Below are positions 1 to 23,632 of a stretch of 64,000 bases of DNA, one piece after another. Position 1 is the stretch's first letter. Every line of letters begins with the position of its first letter. A model generated the notes under the pieces. The model was given only the letters and a program-made list of their open reading frames with translations. It did no database searches and was not told where the DNA came from. Both the position numbers and the translations under genes were made by a program. The stretch lies in IMG/VR virus record IMGVR_UViG_3300028833_005986, positions 1-64,000 of that record. One strand, 5' to 3'. This DNA comes from a virus. Its lineage: Duplodnaviria; Caudoviricetes.

Positions 1-3000
1 TTATTTTACAGCTTCTAAAACTTCTTGTAAATCATTTTTATTCTTTAATATTTTTTGCTGTTCTTTAAATAATTCTAATTCTTTACGCAGAGGATCTAAA
101 TAATCAGTATCTGCAGTATATTTATTTTTTTCAATAGATGCAATATATAAAGTCTTTTCTTTTTCTAAATTTTGTGGCTGAGAATAAAATAAAATTCGAT
201 TATTAGAATAAAATGTTACTGAACCACGATTATTTTTAGTTCCTGAATAATATATATAATTACCAACTATAAAATCTTTTTTATATTTATTAAATGTTGC
301 ATTATTAAAAGTTTGAGTAATAATTTCATATGGTGTAATAATTTCTACATGATATAAATGAACAATTTCTTTTATTACACCTTGTTCATCTTTTCTTGCA
401 TAATCGAAGGGTGCGATTTCTGTAATTAATCCACCTATATTACAAACTGTAGAAGCAGGAACCATTTGTACATGAGTAATTGATTTAGCTCCTACCATGG
501 GATGATATTTAAAGGATACTTTATCATTATTAAGTATATCATTTGCATACATTTGAAAATTAGTTAATTTACTATTTAAAATTGAATATTCATTATTAAT
601 AAATGGCTTTAATAATGAAGTAAGTTTATTATTTTCTTGAACTTTTTGCAATCGTCCTTTTGCTTTTTTTCTAGTAGAAATTAACTTAGCTAAATCATTT
701 TCATTAAATGTTTTATCAGCATTTGATCCATATATACCGAATTCATTTAATTTTGAAAATGGTACAATAATAGTATTATCTTTTTCAAATACTAATTGTC
801 TATCTTCTTGTAAAAATTTAGGTAATTGAATTTTTTCTAATATGTAATTTTTTTCAGCTTTTTGATTTTTATAATCATAATAAAATTCAAACCATGTAAG
901 TAATTCTCCTCGACTTAAATATATTGGCATTCTACCAAATAATTTATTTTCTTCAGTTAATGTTTTATCTTCGAAAATAATAGGTAATCCTTCAAAACAA
1001 TCATTATTAATTAATGTTTCAATTATTTTTTTATTAACTGCGCCTTTTGCCGCACGTGCAAAAAAATCATTAATGGAATCATAAGGTTGATTTTCTAAAA
1101 TAATCTGAATTGCTGCATTACCAATACCTTTTATTTGACCTAATCCAGTACGAATATAATCATCAGTAATAATAGCCTCAGATTGAGATAAATTTATATG
1201 AGGACCTAATATATTTATTCCTTTATGTTCTGCTTCTTGTTTATATAAAGCAAATTTAGAATTATCAAAAGTAATCATCGCTGCATAAAATGCGATCGGA
1301 TAATTAGCTTTTAACCAAGCCATTTGCATAGTTATTATTGAATATGCGTAAGCCGTTTAAAATATGGACTATATTTTAATATATATATTAAAGATTATTA
1401 GTCTCTGATATAATTTATTATATAAGTTAATAAGTATTAATTTAATTTATCATATAAAATATTACCTTTACGCAATATTCCAATATTATTATAATATATT
1501 TCATTTTTTAAAATTTGCATATTAGTAATTATACTTGTACTTAATTGATAAAATGGCATAGAATACTTTTTTCCTTGAATATTATGTAAATTTAAAGATT
1601 GCATATTAAACCAATTCTCTAATATATTTTTACACCAAGCTAAAAATTCTTTTGATGTACTTACAATATAAAATAACTTTCCATTATGTAATATGCAACC
1701 ATCACCATCAATAATGCCTTGAAATATATAAGGTAAAAATTGATATTCTTCAGGATATAAAATAGGTGGATATAAATTATATGTTTTATGATATACAATA
1801 CCAAATCGTCTTAGCTGTGATACTAATAATTGATTACCTAAAGTAAAATAATATATATTTTTTTTATACTTTATCAATTTATTAGATGAATTACAATTAT
1901 TATATGATCTGATTTTATACTTTATATTAAAATTATTAGCAAATAATATTACAGCTTCAAAATCAGTCATTCGTAAATCAATCTGATTTCTACAATTTAT
2001 ACAACCGTCAGTTAACATAATACCAATAAAATATGCTTTCCAAGCACAATCTAATAACGAAAAATCATAAGCATTATATATATATGTATTTAAATGATTT
2101 ATTGTTAACAAATATTTATTTACTTCATATGGTAATAAAATTTTTATAGGTGATACAATAGTTTCTAATTTATTTGAATGTCTAATAATATTACTATTAG
2201 TAATATTTTCATAGGTATGAATAATATTATATATACTATTACGTGTTTTATATTGATATTTTATACATAAATTTTTAACTGACATACCTGCTTTATAATC
2301 ATTAATAATATTTATAATCTTTTTATTTTGTAAAAATTCTTTATTTTGCATATTAATCCCATTCATTATATTAACTTATATAATTTTATTATATACTGAT
2401 TAATTTAAAATTATAAATTATTCCAGTAATTTTTCTTTTTAAGTCACACTAAATGACTTGCATTACTATAAATTATTATTAATTTTTTAAATTAATACTT
2501 TTTCATAAAAAGTATAGATTATATCATTATGTATATATTTAACAATTAATCGTTGATATTAATATATACTTGTATATATTAATATACTAATTATTACTAT
2601 TAAGTAATTTTTTAGTAAAATATTAAATCAAAAAAGTTCTAACAATTAAAACCATAACCTGATGATGCAAGAATAGTTTCTAACATATATTCTGCAACAT
2701 CTTTACTAAATCCGTTATTTATACTTTTTTCAACAAATGTATTAATAAAATCTTCATATTGTTCTGGAAATTTCTTCTTTTTTTCAATATATCGGCGTAA
2801 TTGATCTGCTTCGCCGAAGCTAATATTTAACATTGTACTTAATATTTGCATATATTTATATTTATAATTAATATTATATTAATTATATTAATTTTCATTA
2901 ATAATTTGGAATATATCTTTATCATTAATATTAAATATTTATTCTCTAGAGTAAATATATAATAATATATATTTACTTTGATATTAATATATATAATATA

Positions 3001-4748
3001 TTTCATCAAATTAAATTAATTAACAAAGTATATTATCTTTGTTCTTGAAATAAAATTACTCCGTAAGTACGATTTAAATAACGATCAATACGTGGATCTA
3101 TTTTTACTCTAAATTTCTGATCATTTTTTGCTTTAATATAAGTATCAACTTGACCTGAACCGGGGCGAATTAATGCTGTTACAGCTGCAACTTCATGAAT
3201 ATTATTAGGCTGTATTTTTCTTAGTATTGGTTTTGAAATTTTAATATTATCCATCTGAAAAATCCCAATAACATCTAAATCACATAATAAATTATAAGCT
3301 TTAGAATCATCTAATGGAATATTTTCTAATTTTATTTCGCCATGCATTTTTTGTGCAGCATCTACAGCATAATATTTTTTAATTAATTGAAGAACTAAAT
3401 CCATTTGGGATAAAGCCGAAAGTTTTAATCAATTATATATAGACTATATTTTTTTTCAATTATATATTTACTAAATATTAGTCGTTAAATACATATTAAT
3501 TTATGAATTAATATGTATTACTGATCTATTAATTCCAGTAATTAATAATATTAACCGACGCATAAACTTTACGTCTATCTTAACTAATCCAAAATTTTCA
3601 AAATTTTCTTTTTCTGCTTGAGCTAGATATCCTGGTTCAGTATCTGCATTAATTACTTTTGCTTGAGTAACTGGTAATAAATCTGTTACTGGTATTGGAG
3701 ATACTCCAACACCAGATGGATGCATTGATATTTGTCTAACTGTACCTTCTAATAATTTAGCATATTTTATTACATCTGGATATTTTTTAATAAATTCCTG
3801 TGCACCTGGTAATTTTTCTAAATTATCTATATGATCTATTGGATTTCCGTCTAAATCTCTATCAGGAATATTTTTAGTAAAATTATTTACTTCATCATAT
3901 GGTATACCTAATACACGACCAACATCTTTTATACATTGTTTCATTTGCATTTTCATAAATGTACATACATTGGCTACATATTCTTTCCCATATTTATCAA
4001 TTAAATGCTGAAATACTTGAGGACCTTTTAACATACAATAATCTGTATCTATATCCATTAACATTTATATTTTCATATAAAATTAGACTATCTCTTTTAA
4101 CTTTTATATAAAGCTAATTAAAACGCTTCGAATAGTAACTCATCTTCTATTCTACTAAAATTAGTCGTTACACATTTAATAAAGATAAACTTCAATAATA
4201 ATTCTTAAATAAACATTGATATTTAATAGTTTTATTTAATTGAGTATATTCTTTTAAATTTAAAAAATCTAATATTTTATTATTAATTGTCATATATCCA
4301 AATTTATCTTTATTATTTTGCACGGTATCACCAGCTATTTATTTTTTTTATATATAATATATTAAAAAAAAATAAACCTTAGGCTTTCTTAGTTAGCTAT
4401 TTATTATTTAATTATTAAGAATTAATTTTATTTTGCTAATACCGTTAGCAACAAAATTTAATATTTGTTACACTGCTGAGTTATGGCATTCATTTTAAAT
4501 GCCCAATATCGTTTAGGCAAATGCTTTCGAGTAGGATTTAAAAAACGTTCAAAAATAAGATCATAATCAATAGGATCCATTTTTGTTATTCCTAATAGAT
4601 TATTAACTACAGATCCTCCGCCAGAATTATGTACTACTAAGCCATCAATATTATATGAATGAATATCATCTATTTCTAAATCGTATACTTTACCTTTATA
4701 ATGATATTCTTTTTTATTGGTAATTTTAATTAATTTAATAAATATCAA
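1..4748 (-). CDS. dnaE: DNA polymerase III alpha subunit, C-terminal half, with N-terminal split-intein (IntC) leader; 6 exons (4748-4515, 4055-3571, 3429-~3041, ~2856-2644, 2460-2453, 1353-1), ~893 aa
   Basis: Removing five introns joins the DnaE motifs in frame: FERFLNP..LP|DIDTD, GLVKIDV|LKL, YGVILFQEQ|YMQI, GYGFN|SSH|AYAY..AWLKANYP, plus HhH GLGQIKGIG. The exon sum is 2682 nt, divisible by 3. The PHP/N-terminal half is absent from the window. Confidence 0.9.
1354..2452 (-). mobile_element. Group I intron dnaE-I5 (1099 nt) carrying a LAGLIDADG endonuclease ORF
   Basis: P1 AAGUCAU/GUGACUU with terminal U-G; AAUUACUGGAA P4-like element; P7 CAGAGACUA/AUAUAGUCC; ends AAACG before GCT TAC GCA TAT. 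Confidence 0.9.
1437..2366 (-). CDS. Intron-encoded LAGLIDADG homing endonuclease / possible maturase
   Basis: Two motifs, YFIGIMLTDG and IFQGIIDGDG, with an N-terminal HTH-like segment; lies inside dnaE-I5. Confidence 0.88.
   Translation of the reverse strand: MNGINMQNKEFLQNKKIINIINDYKAGMSVKNLCIKYQYKTRNSIYNIIHTYENITNSNIIRHSNKLETIVSPIKILLPYEVNKYLLTINHLNTYIYNAYDFSLLDCAWKAYFIGIMLTDGCINCRNQIDLRMTDFEAVILFANNFNIKYKIRSYNNCNSSNKLIKYKKNIYYFTLGNQLLVSQLRRFGIVYHKTYNLYPPILYPEEYQFLPYIFQGIIDGDGCILHNGKLFYIVSTSKEFLAWCKNILENWFNMQSLNLHNIQGKKYSMPFYQLSTSIITNMQILKNEIYYNNIGILRKGNILYDKLN
2461..2643 (-). mobile_element. Miniature group I intron dnaE-I4 (183 nt)
   Basis: Short P1 AAUU/GAUU; UCAACGAUUA...GAUAUAAUCU (P7 GAUUA/UAAUC); P9 hairpin AUACUUUUU-AUG-AAAAAGUAU; terminal G at 2461; restores GFN-SSH. 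Confidence 0.8.
2857..3040 (-). mobile_element. Miniature group I-like intron dnaE-I3 (184 nt, boundaries +/-2, non-canonical ends)
   Basis: 5' hairpin AACAAAG/CUUUGUU; CUAGAGAAUA...AAGAUAUAUUCC (P7 GAAUA/UAUUC). Removal restores FQEQ-YMQI, but the intron then ends in A. Confidence 0.7.
3430..3570 (-). mobile_element. Ultra-small group I intron dnaE-I2 (141 nt)
   Basis: P1 GACGU/GCGUC; P4 UUACUG/CAGUAA; 12-bp P6 hairpin; UUUAACGACUA...AUAUAGUCU; terminal G at 3430; GT|A restores KIDV-LKLSAL. Confidence 0.88.
4056..4514 (-). mobile_element. Group I intron dnaE-I1 (459 nt, ORF-less)
   Basis: P1 UGCCU/GGGCA; UGCUAACGGU; GUAACGACUA/GAGAUAGUCU; terminal G; restores HLP-DIDTD at the catalytic aspartates. 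Confidence 0.9.
4626..4748 (-). mobile_element. C-terminal fragment (IntC, 41 aa) of a naturally split intein
   Basis: KLIKIT...VYDLEIDDIHSYNIDGLVVHN followed by Ser+1 (SGGGS, the DnaE GRG-S site); no intein N-part or DnaE N-half upstream. Confidence 0.85.
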
Positions 4749-4754
4749 TCCCTT

Positions 4755-5786
4755 CTATAATAATTTATTTCGTAAATCAATACTATTTAAAATATCTAAT
4801 TCATCAGGTTCAAATGAAATATGACTTTTTACATATGCTATTTTTGATGCTCGAGTTTTCGCTTTTAATTTTTGAATTAATAATAACCTTTCTGATTTAT
4901 GTAACCATTTATTAAATGTTAAACAATTATAATAAAATTTTTTAAATGATGAAGTATCATTAAAAATATCATTATAAAATTTATTACAAATTAATTCTAA
5001 TTCAGATGAACTTAATTTACGTAATTGATTTTCCCAAAATTCAAAATCCATTGTATGTTCATATACATATTTAAATAAAATATCTCTAATTATATCTTTT
5101 ATTTCATTATTATAAAATTGTGCAAATAAATCATAATATAAATCAAAATGATCTTTGTATACAAATTGAAATATTTGTATACGAAATTCTAAGGGAATTT
5201 TCGTATTTAATATAGAACGTTGTGCTCGATAATTAGATATTAATAAATCTTGTAATATTATTCTTTTATGAATATTAGTTAACTTATCATAAAATTTTAT
5301 TAATACATCATCATAATAATAATTATCATTAATCGCATATAATAATATCTTATTTAATTCATCTGTTGTTAATTCAAGTAGTTCTATTAATCGTTCGCAG
5401 TTTAACAATTGCGTTCCATGAGTTGCACAATTATTAATAATACTTGTACGTAGCATTTTTTTATCTTCATTATTTATATATAATTTCTGTTCAAATAAAT
5501 CACAAGCTAACTCAAAATTTAATTTTGCAATATTCATATATGCATTATATAATTTTTGTTCATTTTTATCAAGTTGTAATGGCAATTTATGTAAATTTAT
5601 TAAATCAGCTCTAAGTATATATTTTAAAGTAGAACTTTGACATTGTGCTAATACTATAGTTGCTTTTTTGTTATTATCATAATAACCATATTGATATTCA
5701 TACGTAATTGTTTCATTACTATCTTTATATAATTTACATATTTGTGAAGAAAATATATCATATAATTTATCTAAATCATACCTCAA
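4755..5786 (-). CDS. Hypothetical protein (343 aa)
   Basis: Long ORF with GAGG RBS, abutting sppA; no recognisable motif. Confidence 0.75.
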   Translation of the reverse strand: MRYDLDKLYDIFSSQICKLYKDSNETITYEYQYGYYDNNKKATIVLAQCQSSTLKYILRADLINLHKLPLQLDKNEQKLYNAYMNIAKLNFELACDLFEQKLYINNEDKKMLRTSIINNCATHGTQLLNCERLIELLELTTDELNKILLYAINDNYYYDDVLIKFYDKLTNIHKRIILQDLLISNYRAQRSILNTKIPLEFRIQIFQFVYKDHFDLYYDLFAQFYNNEIKDIIRDILFKYVYEHTMDFEFWENQLRKLSSSELELICNKFYNDIFNDTSSFKKFYYNCLTFNKWLHKSERLLLIQKLKAKTRASKIAYVKSHISFEPDELDILNSIDLRNKLL

Positions 5787-6611
5787 TTATATCAATCCTT
5801 TCATATTATTAATAGCTGATAAATCTAACATTGATGTCATATTAATATTAAATAATTTAGATAATAATGATGCTTTTTTCGTATATGTTTTTATTTTTAC
5901 ATATTGTCTATTAGTTTTTAATAATTCTATTGCATATTCAACAGTATCATCAAAATCTTTATAATCATCAATTAAATTATTATTTAAAGCTATATTTGCT
6001 GTAACAAAACGCCCATCTAATAATTCGACATTATCTATTTTACGATATTTTGTTACCATTTTTATAAAAATATTATGTGAATATAATAACATCTGTTCAA
6101 TATATTCTTTTTCTTCAAGAGTCATATCTCTAAAAGCATTACCGATATCTTTCATTTTTCCTGATTTTAAATAATTAATTTTTATACCAATTTTATCGCT
6201 TAAATCTTTTACATTAGGTATTGGCATAATAACACCAATACTTCCAAGTAATGACATTTTATTAGCAAAAATATAATTACATTGACTTGCTATTAAATAA
6301 GCTGCAGAACAACCGATATCACCAATACTTGCAATAGTAATTATATTTTTTTGTCTAAGTTTATTAATTATGTTTGCAATTTCTTCACCTGCAGCTGCAG
6401 TACCACCTGGAGAATTAATTTTAAATATAACTAAATGCTGATTCGCAGAATCTTCTAATATATTTCTGCATTGTTTAACAATTTCTTGAGATACACAATT
6501 ATTATTAATATTATGATTATTGGCATAAGAAATATTACCAATTATATCAATAATATCAATAATTTTATTAGAAGATTTGAAAAAATTTAATTTAAACAAA
6601 ATAGAATTCAC
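5787..6611 (-). CDS. sppA: Signal peptide peptidase, S49 family
   Basis: INSPGG, SAAYLIAS, GSIGV, KSGKMKD motifs. Confidence 0.88.
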   Translation of the reverse strand: MNSILFKLNFFKSSNKIIDIIDIIGNISYANNHNINNNCVSQEIVKQCRNILEDSANQHLVIFKINSPGGTAAAGEEIANIINKLRQKNIITIASIGDIGCSAAYLIASQCNYIFANKMSLLGSIGVIMPIPNVKDLSDKIGIKINYLKSGKMKDIGNAFRDMTLEEKEYIEQMLLYSHNIFIKMVTKYRKIDNVELLDGRFVTANIALNNNLIDDYKDFDDTVEYAIELLKTNRQYVKIKTYTKKASLLSKLFNINMTSMLDLSAINNMKGLI

Positions 6612-20170: not shown

Positions 20171-23100
20171 TTAAAAATTAATAATTGCTGGTTCATAATT
20201 TAATTTTATCGGTTTTGAAATTTTCGTTCCTGATTCTAATTGCGCAGTATCAATTAATCTAATTCTCCCACGATTATCAAGATTAACATATTTATCTGCT
20301 ACAATTATCATTTTATGAACATATCCTGGATCTTTATTCGCAAATTGTACATAAGATGATCCTTTATTAATTCGAGATTTTATTCCTACAATAGTATTAT
20401 CTAGCATTTTATATCCAAATCCGCCATTAATCTGTTTAGTATATATAATTATTTTATAAGCCGCGTTATATTTAGTAATACTTACACTATTAACAATATC
20501 TTCGTTTTTTAATGAAATAGCCGGAATGCCTTTCTTATTTGCAGTTAATGATTCTTTAAATGATTGTTCATAAAACCGATTAATAATTCCCTTTTGCGAA
20601 ATTAATGTAATAATATTATCTTTATCACTATTAATTCGCTGCGCATGAATAATTTTATCTGAATTTTCAAAATTACTAAAAATTGGTGCTAATTTTTTAT
20701 TCCGAGCTTTAAAACCAGATTCATTAATTTTTAACATTAAACCATTTTGAGTAAAACATGTAATATATTGATTATTATTGTTTAAGATAAATATATATAT
20801 AATATTTTCTTTACTATTCCATGCTAATAAATCAGTAAATGTTAATTTTATATAATTATTATTTTCTAAAATAACTAAAAATAAATCATTAGTTTTACAT
20901 TGAATTATTTGCTTATATATTTCATTTTTTTCTTTTAATACACCTGAACGAAAATTACTATTATATATTTCTTGTGAAATAAGATATATATTATTTTTAT
21001 GAGTTAATATTAATAATGCATCTTGTACTTCAACTTTTTCTATTACTTCATTATTAATTAATTGCGTACGACGATTATCACCGAATCTTGTTTTTAAATC
21101 TTCTAATTGATTAATAATTTTTTGATCTACTAATGCTGGAGTATTTAATAATTGATTGGTATCAGCTATTTCTATAGTTAATTTTTTAATATTATTAAGA
21201 ATATCATTTTTATTTAATTTAGTTAATCGTCGTAATTTAAATTCTAAAATAGCTTCTGCTTGATTATCATCTAAATTAAAATAAGATTTTAATTGTTCTT
21301 TCGCATCTTTATCAGTTTCTGCTTGCTCAATTAATTTAATCGCCGTGGATAAAGAATTAACAATTATATTTATTCCATTTTGAATATGTAATTTATCATT
21401 TAATCTATTCAAAATAATTTTATTTTCTTTATTAATGCATTCTCTACGATGCTGTAAATAACAATTAAAATATTCTTTTAAAGAAAATACTTTCGGAGTA
21501 TTATCTAATATTGCTCTTATTATAAATGAACAATTTTTTATTAATTCAGTCTGATTAAATAATTCATTTATAGTCAGATCTATAATAGCATTTTTTGATA
21601 ATTCAATAATTATATTAGTATGTATAGTTGATAAATCTTTTATATTACTAACGCCAGGAATTTTTTTATCAATTAAACATAATTGTTGTAATTTTTCTAC
21701 TAATTTTTCTCTATTAACTTCTGGAGGCAATTCATTAATAATAATATTATTATTTTTTAACTCATATTTAGCCTTAAATGTTAATTTTCCTTGTCCAGTC
21801 TCATATAATTTTTTTATTTCGTTGTTATTAATTAATAATGAACCTGATGGAAAATCCGGACAAGGCATAATTTTCATTAATTCATCTAATGTAATATTAT
21901 TATTTTTTATATAAGCAATAATAGCATTACATAATTCATTTAAATTATGCGAGGGAATATTTGTAGAATATCCTACAGCAATGCCTTGGGTGCCATTAGC
22001 CAATAAATTAGGAAATATTCCAGGCAAAGTAATAGGTTCTTGTGTAATATCAGAATAATTAGATTTAAAATCAACAGCTTTATTATTAATTCCATCCATA
22101 TTAAATTCAGCTAATTTATTTAATTTTGCTTCGGTATTATGATTAATAAATCCATTAGCTGTAAATGAATGACATTCGCTATTTACTTTTATAGAATATA
22201 CGTGTTTTTCTTTAATTGATAATTTTTTATTAATAATTTTAGAATATACAAAATCTCTATTAGTAATTAAATCTTCATTATATAAATTAATTATTTCACG
22301 AAGTATATTTATTTTTTCGTCAGATATAAAATTAATATTTTTATAAAACCAATATAAATCTTGATATTGATTAATTTTTAATTTAAAGGTTTTCTTCTTC
22401 TTATTTGGTATTTCGTATACAGTTGATACAATTCCAAATTGTAATAATAATATTTGTATTTGTTGAAGAAAATATTTATATTTAGACGAATATAAAATAA
22501 AGCACTTTTTACCTTGTTTTGCATCATTAAAAATACTAACTTGTGCGTGATTTTCGAATAAATATAATAAGAATATTTTTTGAATATATTTTGACGATTT
22601 TAAAATAACAGACGGTATGGATATGTTATTAATAACATAATCATAATTTTCTCGTAAAAATTGATATAATATTTTACTATTAATAGTAATTTCATATAAA
22701 AATTGACGTTTTAACTTTCTAATTTTTACATTTAATTTGCTAGTAATATTTAAATCTATTATTAATCTTTGTAAATAATTAAATAAAAAATTATGTAAAT
22801 ATTGATTATAAGTTCGTATTTTACAATGCCAATATCCGCCATTAGGTAAATGTCTGATAGAAGAATTAGCTAAAAAAGTACCTATAAATTGAGCTTGTTC
22901 TTCATTAGCTATATCCCAATCTGCACTAATTTGATCTTGTTTACAATTGATTACTGCAATATCTCCTTCTTTAACTTCTTCTAATAATTTCCATTTATAT
23001 AAATTATTATCTAATACTAATATAGGATGATTATATGTACCTGATAATTCAAAACCATGTTCAGTATTTATAGTAAACACTGAATGCATATCTGAATCAA

Positions 23101-23632
23101 ACCATTTATTTGCTCTATTATGTTGATTAATTGATTCAACATATAATCCTCGATCTACATAATCTTGTAAATTTTGAATTGGAATTAAACCATAATTAGT
23201 ATTTACTAACGTACCTTCAACTACACAATAACGCATATGAGCAGCTGGATCTCCTACATCATTGCCAACATTTCCATGAAAAGAAATTAATGGATAACGA
23301 TTAGTCCAAGGCTGTGCCATAGCTACTAATGCTTGATATATTGAAGCATCACCATGGGGATGAAAATCACCCATTACATCACCGACATATTTAGCACATT
23401 TTATAAATGGACCATTATATAAATATTTTTTATTCCAACCAGTATATAAAATGCGTCGTTGAACAGGCTTCATACCATCATTGATTAATGGTAATGAACG
23501 ATCTTTTATTACTTCAATTGCATAATTTAACATTGCCAGTGATAATTCATCTGCTAAATCTACATCTTGTATATTTTCTTTTTTTAATAATTCATTTATA
23601 TTTATTTCTTTATGCTTCGATTTTTTACTCAT
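20171..23632 (-). CDS. gyrA: Type IIA topoisomerase subunit A (GyrA/ParC-like) with intein
   Basis: DGMKPVQRR, HPHGD, AHMRY|TEAK, GIAVG..TNIPSHN, PDFP motifs. Confidence 0.92.
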   Translation of the reverse strand: MSKKSKHKEININELLKKENIQDVDLADELSLAMLNYAIEVIKDRSLPLINDGMKPVQRRILYTGWNKKYLYNGPFIKCAKYVGDVMGDFHPHGDASIYQALVAMAQPWTNRYPLISFHGNVGNDVGDPAAHMRYCVVEGTLVNTNYGLIPIQNLQDYVDRGLYVESINQHNRANKWFDSDMHSVFTINTEHGFELSGTYNHPILVLDNNLYKWKLLEEVKEGDIAVINCKQDQISADWDIANEEQAQFIGTFLANSSIRHLPNGGYWHCKIRTYNQYLHNFLFNYLQRLIIDLNITSKLNVKIRKLKRQFLYEITINSKILYQFLRENYDYVINNISIPSVILKSSKYIQKIFLLYLFENHAQVSIFNDAKQGKKCFILYSSKYKYFLQQIQILLLQFGIVSTVYEIPNKKKKTFKLKINQYQDLYWFYKNINFISDEKINILREIINLYNEDLITNRDFVYSKIINKKLSIKEKHVYSIKVNSECHSFTANGFINHNTEAKLNKLAEFNMDGINNKAVDFKSNYSDITQEPITLPGIFPNLLANGTQGIAVGYSTNIPSHNLNELCNAIIAYIKNNNITLDELMKIMPCPDFPSGSLLINNNEIKKLYETGQGKLTFKAKYELKNNNIIINELPPEVNREKLVEKLQQLCLIDKKIPGVSNIKDLSTIHTNIIIELSKNAIIDLTINELFNQTELIKNCSFIIRAILDNTPKVFSLKEYFNCYLQHRRECINKENKIILNRLNDKLHIQNGINIIVNSLSTAIKLIEQAETDKDAKEQLKSYFNLDDNQAEAILEFKLRRLTKLNKNDILNNIKKLTIEIADTNQLLNTPALVDQKIINQLEDLKTRFGDNRRTQLINNEVIEKVEVQDALLILTHKNNIYLISQEIYNSNFRSGVLKEKNEIYKQIIQCKTNDLFLVILENNNYIKLTFTDLLAWNSKENIIYIFILNNNNQYITCFTQNGLMLKINESGFKARNKKLAPIFSNFENSDKIIHAQRINSDKDNIITLISQKGIINRFYEQSFKESLTANKKGIPAISLKNEDIVNSVSITKYNAAYKIIIYTKQINGGFGYKMLDNTIVGIKSRINKGSSYVQFANKDPGYVHKMIIVADKYVNLDNRGRIRLIDTAQLESGTKISKPIKLNYEPAIINF
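22136..23227 (-). mobile_element. Intein (364 aa) directly after the catalytic Tyr of GyrA; endonuclease motifs degenerate
   Basis: RY|CVVEGT...TYNHP...VYSIKV..FTANGFINHN|T. Confidence 0.92.

Follow-up and report, generated by a model that had tools for sequence, protein, structure and literature searches.

Is the dnaE gene at the very start of this phage record the C-terminal half of a polymerase assembled by protein trans-splicing, and if so, where is the other half? The window analysed here is the whole stretch of 64,000 nucleotides with which an IMG/VR record of 166,990 bp (IMGVR_UViG_3300028833_005986) begins; the GC content of the window is ~22% on average. The record is classed as a provirus and rated ~34% complete, which would imply a whole genome near 0.5 Mb. 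Since position 1 coincides with the final base of the dnaE stop codon (1–3), trimming of the record at a gene boundary is probable. Because the relative L115 continues past its dnaE C-half into phosphatase and glycosyltransferase genes, the provirus boundary at window positions 1–3 looks like a trimming artefact.

The earlier note had placed at the start of this gene a 41-aa IntC ending VHN|SGGGS and had taken the gene for a DnaE C-half broken by a split intein at a GRG|S site. Reading of the ORF, together with Pfam matches, bore out both points. Exon 1 is made up as follows.

4458..4748, minus strand: dnaE exon-1 ORF, TTG start, 96 aa
4746..4748, minus strand: start codon TTG; the aligned position in relatives is also a start codon
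4626..4748, minus strand: IntC, 41 codons from the TTG to the terminal Asn, with blocks F and G, ending HN
4623..4625, minus strand: Ser+1 codon (TCT), first C-extein residue and Ser of the GRG-S palm motif
4515..4622, minus strand: rest of exon 1, a DnaE palm segment running to ..FERFLNP.., last exon residue Pro78

ORF residues 6–41 correspond to positions 120–155 of the 155 in Pfam Intein_splicing (E = 0.0023; IntC alone scores 18.2 bits, below the Pfam curated cut-off of 35.8), and residues 42–78, straight after IntC, to positions 66–102 of DNA_pol3_alpha (E = 6.6e-12). The intein/extein junction reads ..VVHN|SGGGS, with ..VVHN|S at 4623–4637, and the intein ends as class-1 inteins do, with blocks F and G and His-Asn followed by a Ser+1 nucleophile. 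Residue 78 (coordinate 4515) closes exon 1, after which the frame enters an insert. Judged by its sequence, the ORF at 4458..4748 is confirmed as the C-terminal piece of a split intein fused to the DnaE palm.

Intein-less relatives (L011–L018) carry an uninterrupted GRGSGAGS across the window's break point, which places the break at G-R-G|S. We take the Gly-Ser found there to belong to the Pol-beta-like motif that contacts the phosphates of the incoming nucleotide in Pol III alpha structures. The window's IntC aligns with the IntC of G001 and G002 and with the contiguous intein of L009. Relative to its counterparts, third codon positions in blocks F and G have changed and a Ser codon has switched between TCN and AGT with the residues kept, a pattern that points to purifying selection on IntC. 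Further along the gene, palm (DNA_pol3_alpha), fingers and HhH follow one another on successive exons (Pfam) in the order of DnaE (Pol III alpha, a family C polymerase), and the window's DnaE lacks what a C-half would be expected to lack, the PHP domain and palm positions 1–65.

The start of the C-half and its upstream neighbour are arranged as follows.

4749..4757, minus strand: SD-like motif AGAAGGGA, abutting the start codon and overlapping the in-frame TAG of the upstream ORF (4755–4757)
4755..5786, minus strand: upstream ORF, 343 aa, a conserved neighbour with no Pfam or PHROG match

An unusually close RBS at the TTG start had been remarked on, and does exist: the SD-like motif abuts the start and is kept in relatives. 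The suspected reliance of this start on coupling to the upstream stop is unlikely, since the motif is also kept in relatives whose upstream stop lies at least 24 nt away (the distance is 6 nt in the window and 24 nt in L120, and in L115 two further ORFs lie in between). In the alignment, the homologous start position is ATG in L120/L121, GTG in L115 and TTG in L118, and five independent ENA/Logan assemblies share the same gene start, as TTG, ATG, ATG, TTG and GTG, each after GAAAGGA-like purines. IntC and its extein thus have their own start with a stop upstream, as in a naturally split intein encoded by a gene of its own. By synteny, the 343-aa ORF has counterparts of 339–341 aa in relatives, and it contains no recognisable endonuclease (Pfam, PHROG). 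Read-through of its TAG, fusing it to IntC, was considered and rejected: code 11 fits, the ORF is not intein-like (Pfam, PHROG) and the spacing differs in relatives. Among the genome's long ORFs, 70 end in TAA, 12 in TAG and 8 in TGA, and treating TAG as sense barely lengthens ORFs.

These starts bear on whether the break at ~4750 is an assembly artefact, a risk the earlier note had raised, or whether the C-half is a decaying remnant that has lost its partner; the absence of a partner from the record would suit either. A start position shared among independent assemblies, whether as TTG, ATG or GTG, argues against misassembly, and the junction is common to five independent assemblies. Nor does the gene look decayed, as its exons keep DnaE motifs and open frames, the substitutions in IntC are conservative, and no other replicative polymerase was found in the record, neither a PolA nor a PolB gene. 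We regard a remnant or an artefact as highly unlikely.

A genuine C-half calls for an N-half, and the type predicted was a PHP-DnaE ORF ending GxGRG followed by an IntN of ~100 aa. Exactly this occurs in complete relatives. A PHP search gives one match only in G001 (rated complete at 504,279 bp), whose N-half is a 528-aa PHP-DnaE ORF that ends GRG and runs on through Cys1 and a 99-residue IntN to a stop. The 812-aa C-half lies ~23 kb downstream on the same strand, and coverage of DNA_pol3_alpha by the two is complementary (positions 7–70 in the N-half, 66–259 in the C-half; Pfam). The window's IntC and flank are 62% identical to those of G001, tblastn aligning G001 C-half residues 1–76. N-half/C-half pairs like that of G001 are also present in G002, G005, G006 and G008, and Cys1 and T-x-x-H are kept in the IntN of six of six aligned members. 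The PHP domain of the G002 N-half (L091 1036–3147) harbours a further intein, a contiguous one, so that this half-gene has two. The same GRG|S site also holds contiguous mini-inteins (L009/L010, L019) and contiguous inteins of greater length that seem to include an endonuclease domain (L007/L008, L030). The N-half and C-half of G006 flank a 311-aa ORF that has a GIY-YIG-like start and four NUMOD3 motifs; this is the layout of the fractured gene of Dassa et al. 2009.

We searched an IntN profile built from six sequences against 1.84 billion representative proteins (50% identity clusters) and obtained 5,032 matches at E <= 1e-3. At least 72 of the best 150 end 88–111 residues past a G-x-G-R-G|C junction. 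The regular length of these tails argues that most of the ends are real stops, although some may be truncated gene calls. A split at this site is common and widespread.

Where, then, is this phage's own N-half? The earlier note had seen no PHP domain or IntN in the window, and this extends to the entire 166,990-bp record, from which a PHP domain is absent even at E <= 10. A tblastn search of the record with a relative's N-half returned nothing; a search of the record with P0149, a candidate partner described below, gave no N-half, and blastn and tblastx with the contig encoding it (L133) gave a shared repeat only. The N-half is absent from the 162 kb upstream of the C-half on the record and from the 7 kb downstream of the C-half in L115. 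The genes preceding the C-half are the 343-aa ORF and one for an S49 peptidase; the adjacent N-half of a fractured gene is not among them. The G001 genes just upstream of its N-half (292–296 kb) match window positions 9.8–11.2 kb, so the N-half is gone from its syntenic slot and would have to sit elsewhere. The proposed search of the rest of the genome for a PHP-DnaE with IntN was therefore empty in the record, with the predicted partner present in complete relatives; since the record covers only about a third of the genome, the missing N-half neither refutes nor proves a split intein.

The one weak IntN-like tblastn match, at 122.9 kb, was rejected as a partner, because the intein there is contiguous and belongs to a helicase gene. 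In this SF2-type helicase gene (record ~122,840–124,500; L183 1338–2999, plus strand) the intein sits in the P-loop, GTGK|...HN|S, and because its first residue reads as Ala, not Cys or Ser, it may be a non-class-1 intein. The record holds another contiguous intein, with a LAGLIDADG endonuclease domain, at ~residues 159–499 of the 1,153-aa product of the GyrA gene (window 20171–23632, minus strand).

Searches beyond the record gave a similar picture. Scans of IMG/VR and JGI metagenomes with P0149 returned nothing, and a JGI scan with the IntN alignment returned the source contig of G001 only, not this phage's own N-half, which was likewise absent among contigs encoding the last dnaE exon. A viral scan with the full N-half alignment, covering two narrow patterns only, found little. 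In a scan of genome contigs, nearly all matches were to the extein, and one Ureaplasma match was intein-less.

P0149 comprises 116 aa, in which G-A-R-G is followed by Cys1, a 104-residue IntN with T-K-D-H and a stop; its composition is strongly biased to residues with AT-rich codons. Its contig, L133 (20.3% GC), comes from the Logan sample SRR16606036. L120 stems from the same sample, and exon 1 of its C-half and exon 1 in the window are 94% identical. At its end, L133 is 89–98% identical to four repeat copies located at 158.5–158.75 kb of this genome. These copies, at record positions 158,465–158,756, are tandem repeats of a ~62-nt element with a spacing of ~81 nt. P0149 is thus a candidate partner, linked to the clade of this phage by shared sample, base composition and shared repeat, not by contiguity. 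On L133, a piece of DnaE N-extein lies upstream in frame, separated from the IntN exon by ~220 nt with stops (257–475), and the N-half gene is probably intron-split too. This insert lies a few codons before the intein junction; the exon ends are ambiguous, as an I-P/x-G-like motif is present in both flanks. Counted from the sequences, the net charge is about −6 for IntN and about +5 for the first 20 residues of IntC. Such a polarity, IntN negative and IntC positive, has been described for cyanobacterial DnaE, IMPDH-1 and NrdJ-1 (PMC2677866).

Beyond exon 1, the C-half continues in pieces. Exons were delimited from Pfam, tblastn with the G001 C-half and three-frame reading.

4056..4514, minus strand: intervening sequence 1, 459 nt; the ORF continues 18 codons into it, to a stop at 4458–4460
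~3571–4055, minus strand: C-half exon, bounds approximate
~3039–3429, minus strand: C-half exon, bounds approximate
~2645–2851, minus strand: C-half exon, bounds approximate
1437–2366: LAGLIDADG ORF inside one insert, between C-half exons
4–1356, minus strand: last C-half exon, bounds approximate, with the stop codon at 1–3

In the three-frame reading, the inserts between the exons have many stops in all three frames, and recoded stops in place of introns were rejected on this ground. Maturation of the C-half mRNA by removal of several small introns is inferred, given that an Rfam search of window positions 1–6000 matched no insert to an intron family. Insert 1 falls after ..FERFLNP.. at the same codon in the window, in phage G gp329 (L132) and in L011–L018, a group of ~100-kb phages. 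The read-through tails of this insert are alike (K-x-Y-W-A ...) in the window (4458–4514), phage G and L011–L018, and this resemblance at one codon suggests a single mobile intron family at the site.

In a genome so crowded with small introns, the break could instead lie at the RNA level, with IntC being an internal exon that a cis- or trans-splicing group I intron joins to upstream exons for N-extein plus IntN, so that the intein would be contiguous in the protein; the ~220-nt insert of L133, so close to the junction, also fits this picture. However, no N-half lies within 162 kb upstream on the strand of the C-half, and relatives have TTG, ATG or GTG starts with an SD-like motif at one position. 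Moreover, the IntN ORF closes with a stop at the canonical split point in P0149, and likewise in relatives that are free of introns and whose half genes are plainly separate. An RNA-level break is therefore extremely unlikely.

In our preferred reading, which we hold to be very probably correct, the C-half gene and a separate N-half gene elsewhere give two proteins that trans-splicing joins into DnaE. Once the small introns had been removed from the mRNA, the C-half would be made from a start codon of its own, giving a protein in which IntC (41 aa) precedes the palm, fingers and HhH region of a DnaE-type replicative polymerase. A second gene, presumably in the part of the ~0.5-Mb genome outside the record, would encode the PHP domain and first part of the palm, ending in G-x-R-G followed by Cys1 and an IntN of ~100 aa. 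The acidic IntN would dock with the Lys-rich start of IntC, the two folding into one HINT domain, and class-1 trans-splicing (Cys1, TxxH, terminal HN, Ser+1) would ligate ..GRG to S.. and so restore the GRGS motif that binds nucleotides.

The intein pieces might alternatively act only as a clasp, holding the halves together as a non-covalent two-chain enzyme that is never spliced. Yet the residues needed for catalysis are all in place: the window supplies the terminal HN and Ser+1, and the IntN of relatives and of P0149 has Cys1 and TxxH. With the break inside GRGS, a retained intein mass would probably block the active site. We consider a clasp very unlikely, and return to trans-splicing in comparing the locus with known systems.

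The +1 residue of the cyanobacterial DnaE split intein is Cys, unlike the Ser+1 here. The two systems (Ssp and Npu on the cyanobacterial side) are otherwise alike in host protein, in having halves at separate loci, in the canonical split point within the intein and in charge polarity; PDB searches with the IntN profile gave no match to cyanobacterial DnaE inteins. As the earlier note had stated, the break in the host protein differs: cyanobacterial DnaE is split in the fingers, at PolIII-alpha insertion point a (Novikova et al., PMC4760082), and this DnaE in the palm, at GRG|S.

Split PolB inteins are known in phages, and in 2009 split inteins were described in phage-like metagenomic DnaE, at three loci and at non-cyanobacterial points (Dassa et al., PMC2677866). 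Those fractured genes, with an IntN of 88–105 aa and an IntC of 33–54 aa (PMC2677866), resemble the present locus in being phage-type DnaE, canonically split, at a non-cyanobacterial site. In contrast to them, the window's C-half adjoins neither an endonuclease gene nor an N-half, and its halves are at least 162 kb apart in the upstream direction or on another part of the genome.

The DnaE-like gp329 of Bacillus phage G (JN638751) is interrupted by an intein at exactly this site (GRG|C ... HN|S), and window IntC plus extein are 59% identical to it. Past ..FERFLNP.. it shares the position of insert 1, and the GIY-YIG homing endonuclease gene gp330 comes next. Its intein differs in being contiguous, ~290 aa long with an inserted region, and JN638751 annotates no intein. 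The sheep and goat gut phages G001 (504 kb) and G008 (416 kb) share the intein family and site with this phage, whereas their dnaE halves are free of introns and lie in one region (~23 kb apart in G001), and their exteins are ~26–30% identical to those of this phage (tblastn). Solved inteins are matched weakly by the IntN profile; among characterised split inteins its top match is gp41-1 (PDB 6QAZ), and a very weak one (E = 9e-4, 22.6 bits). This is likewise a Cys1/Ser+1 class-1 split intein from phage-like DNA, in a different host protein. Of the earlier proposal of a new split intein with Ser+1, the Ser+1 stands and the novelty is overstated: the family is widespread, the kind was published in 2009, and gp41-1 already combines Cys1 with Ser+1. 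What sets this locus apart is how far its halves lie from each other and how many small introns are layered on top of the split.

Taken jointly, it is possible, and we put it forward tentatively, that the polymerase needs three self-splicing layers and that the IntN/IntC pair could give a new orthogonal Cys1/Ser+1 ligation tool. If so, the layers would be at least five small introns in the C-half, at least one in the N-half (L133, ~220 nt) and a split intein whose halves lie more than 160 kb apart. To protein engineers the family offers a rich supply of uncharacterised Cys1/Ser+1 split inteins; the best 150 matches include at least 72 clusters (50% identity). These findings leave current understanding unchanged. 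They do offer a natural series at one point, the GRG|S site, running from a contiguous mini-intein, through a contiguous intein with an endonuclease and a fractured gene with a free-standing endonuclease-like gene, to halves a few kb apart and halves far apart. The series fits the 2009 gene-breaking model and makes that model testable by comparison. For the biology of the phage, the preferred reading would mean that an essential enzyme is predicted to need both RNA and protein splicing.
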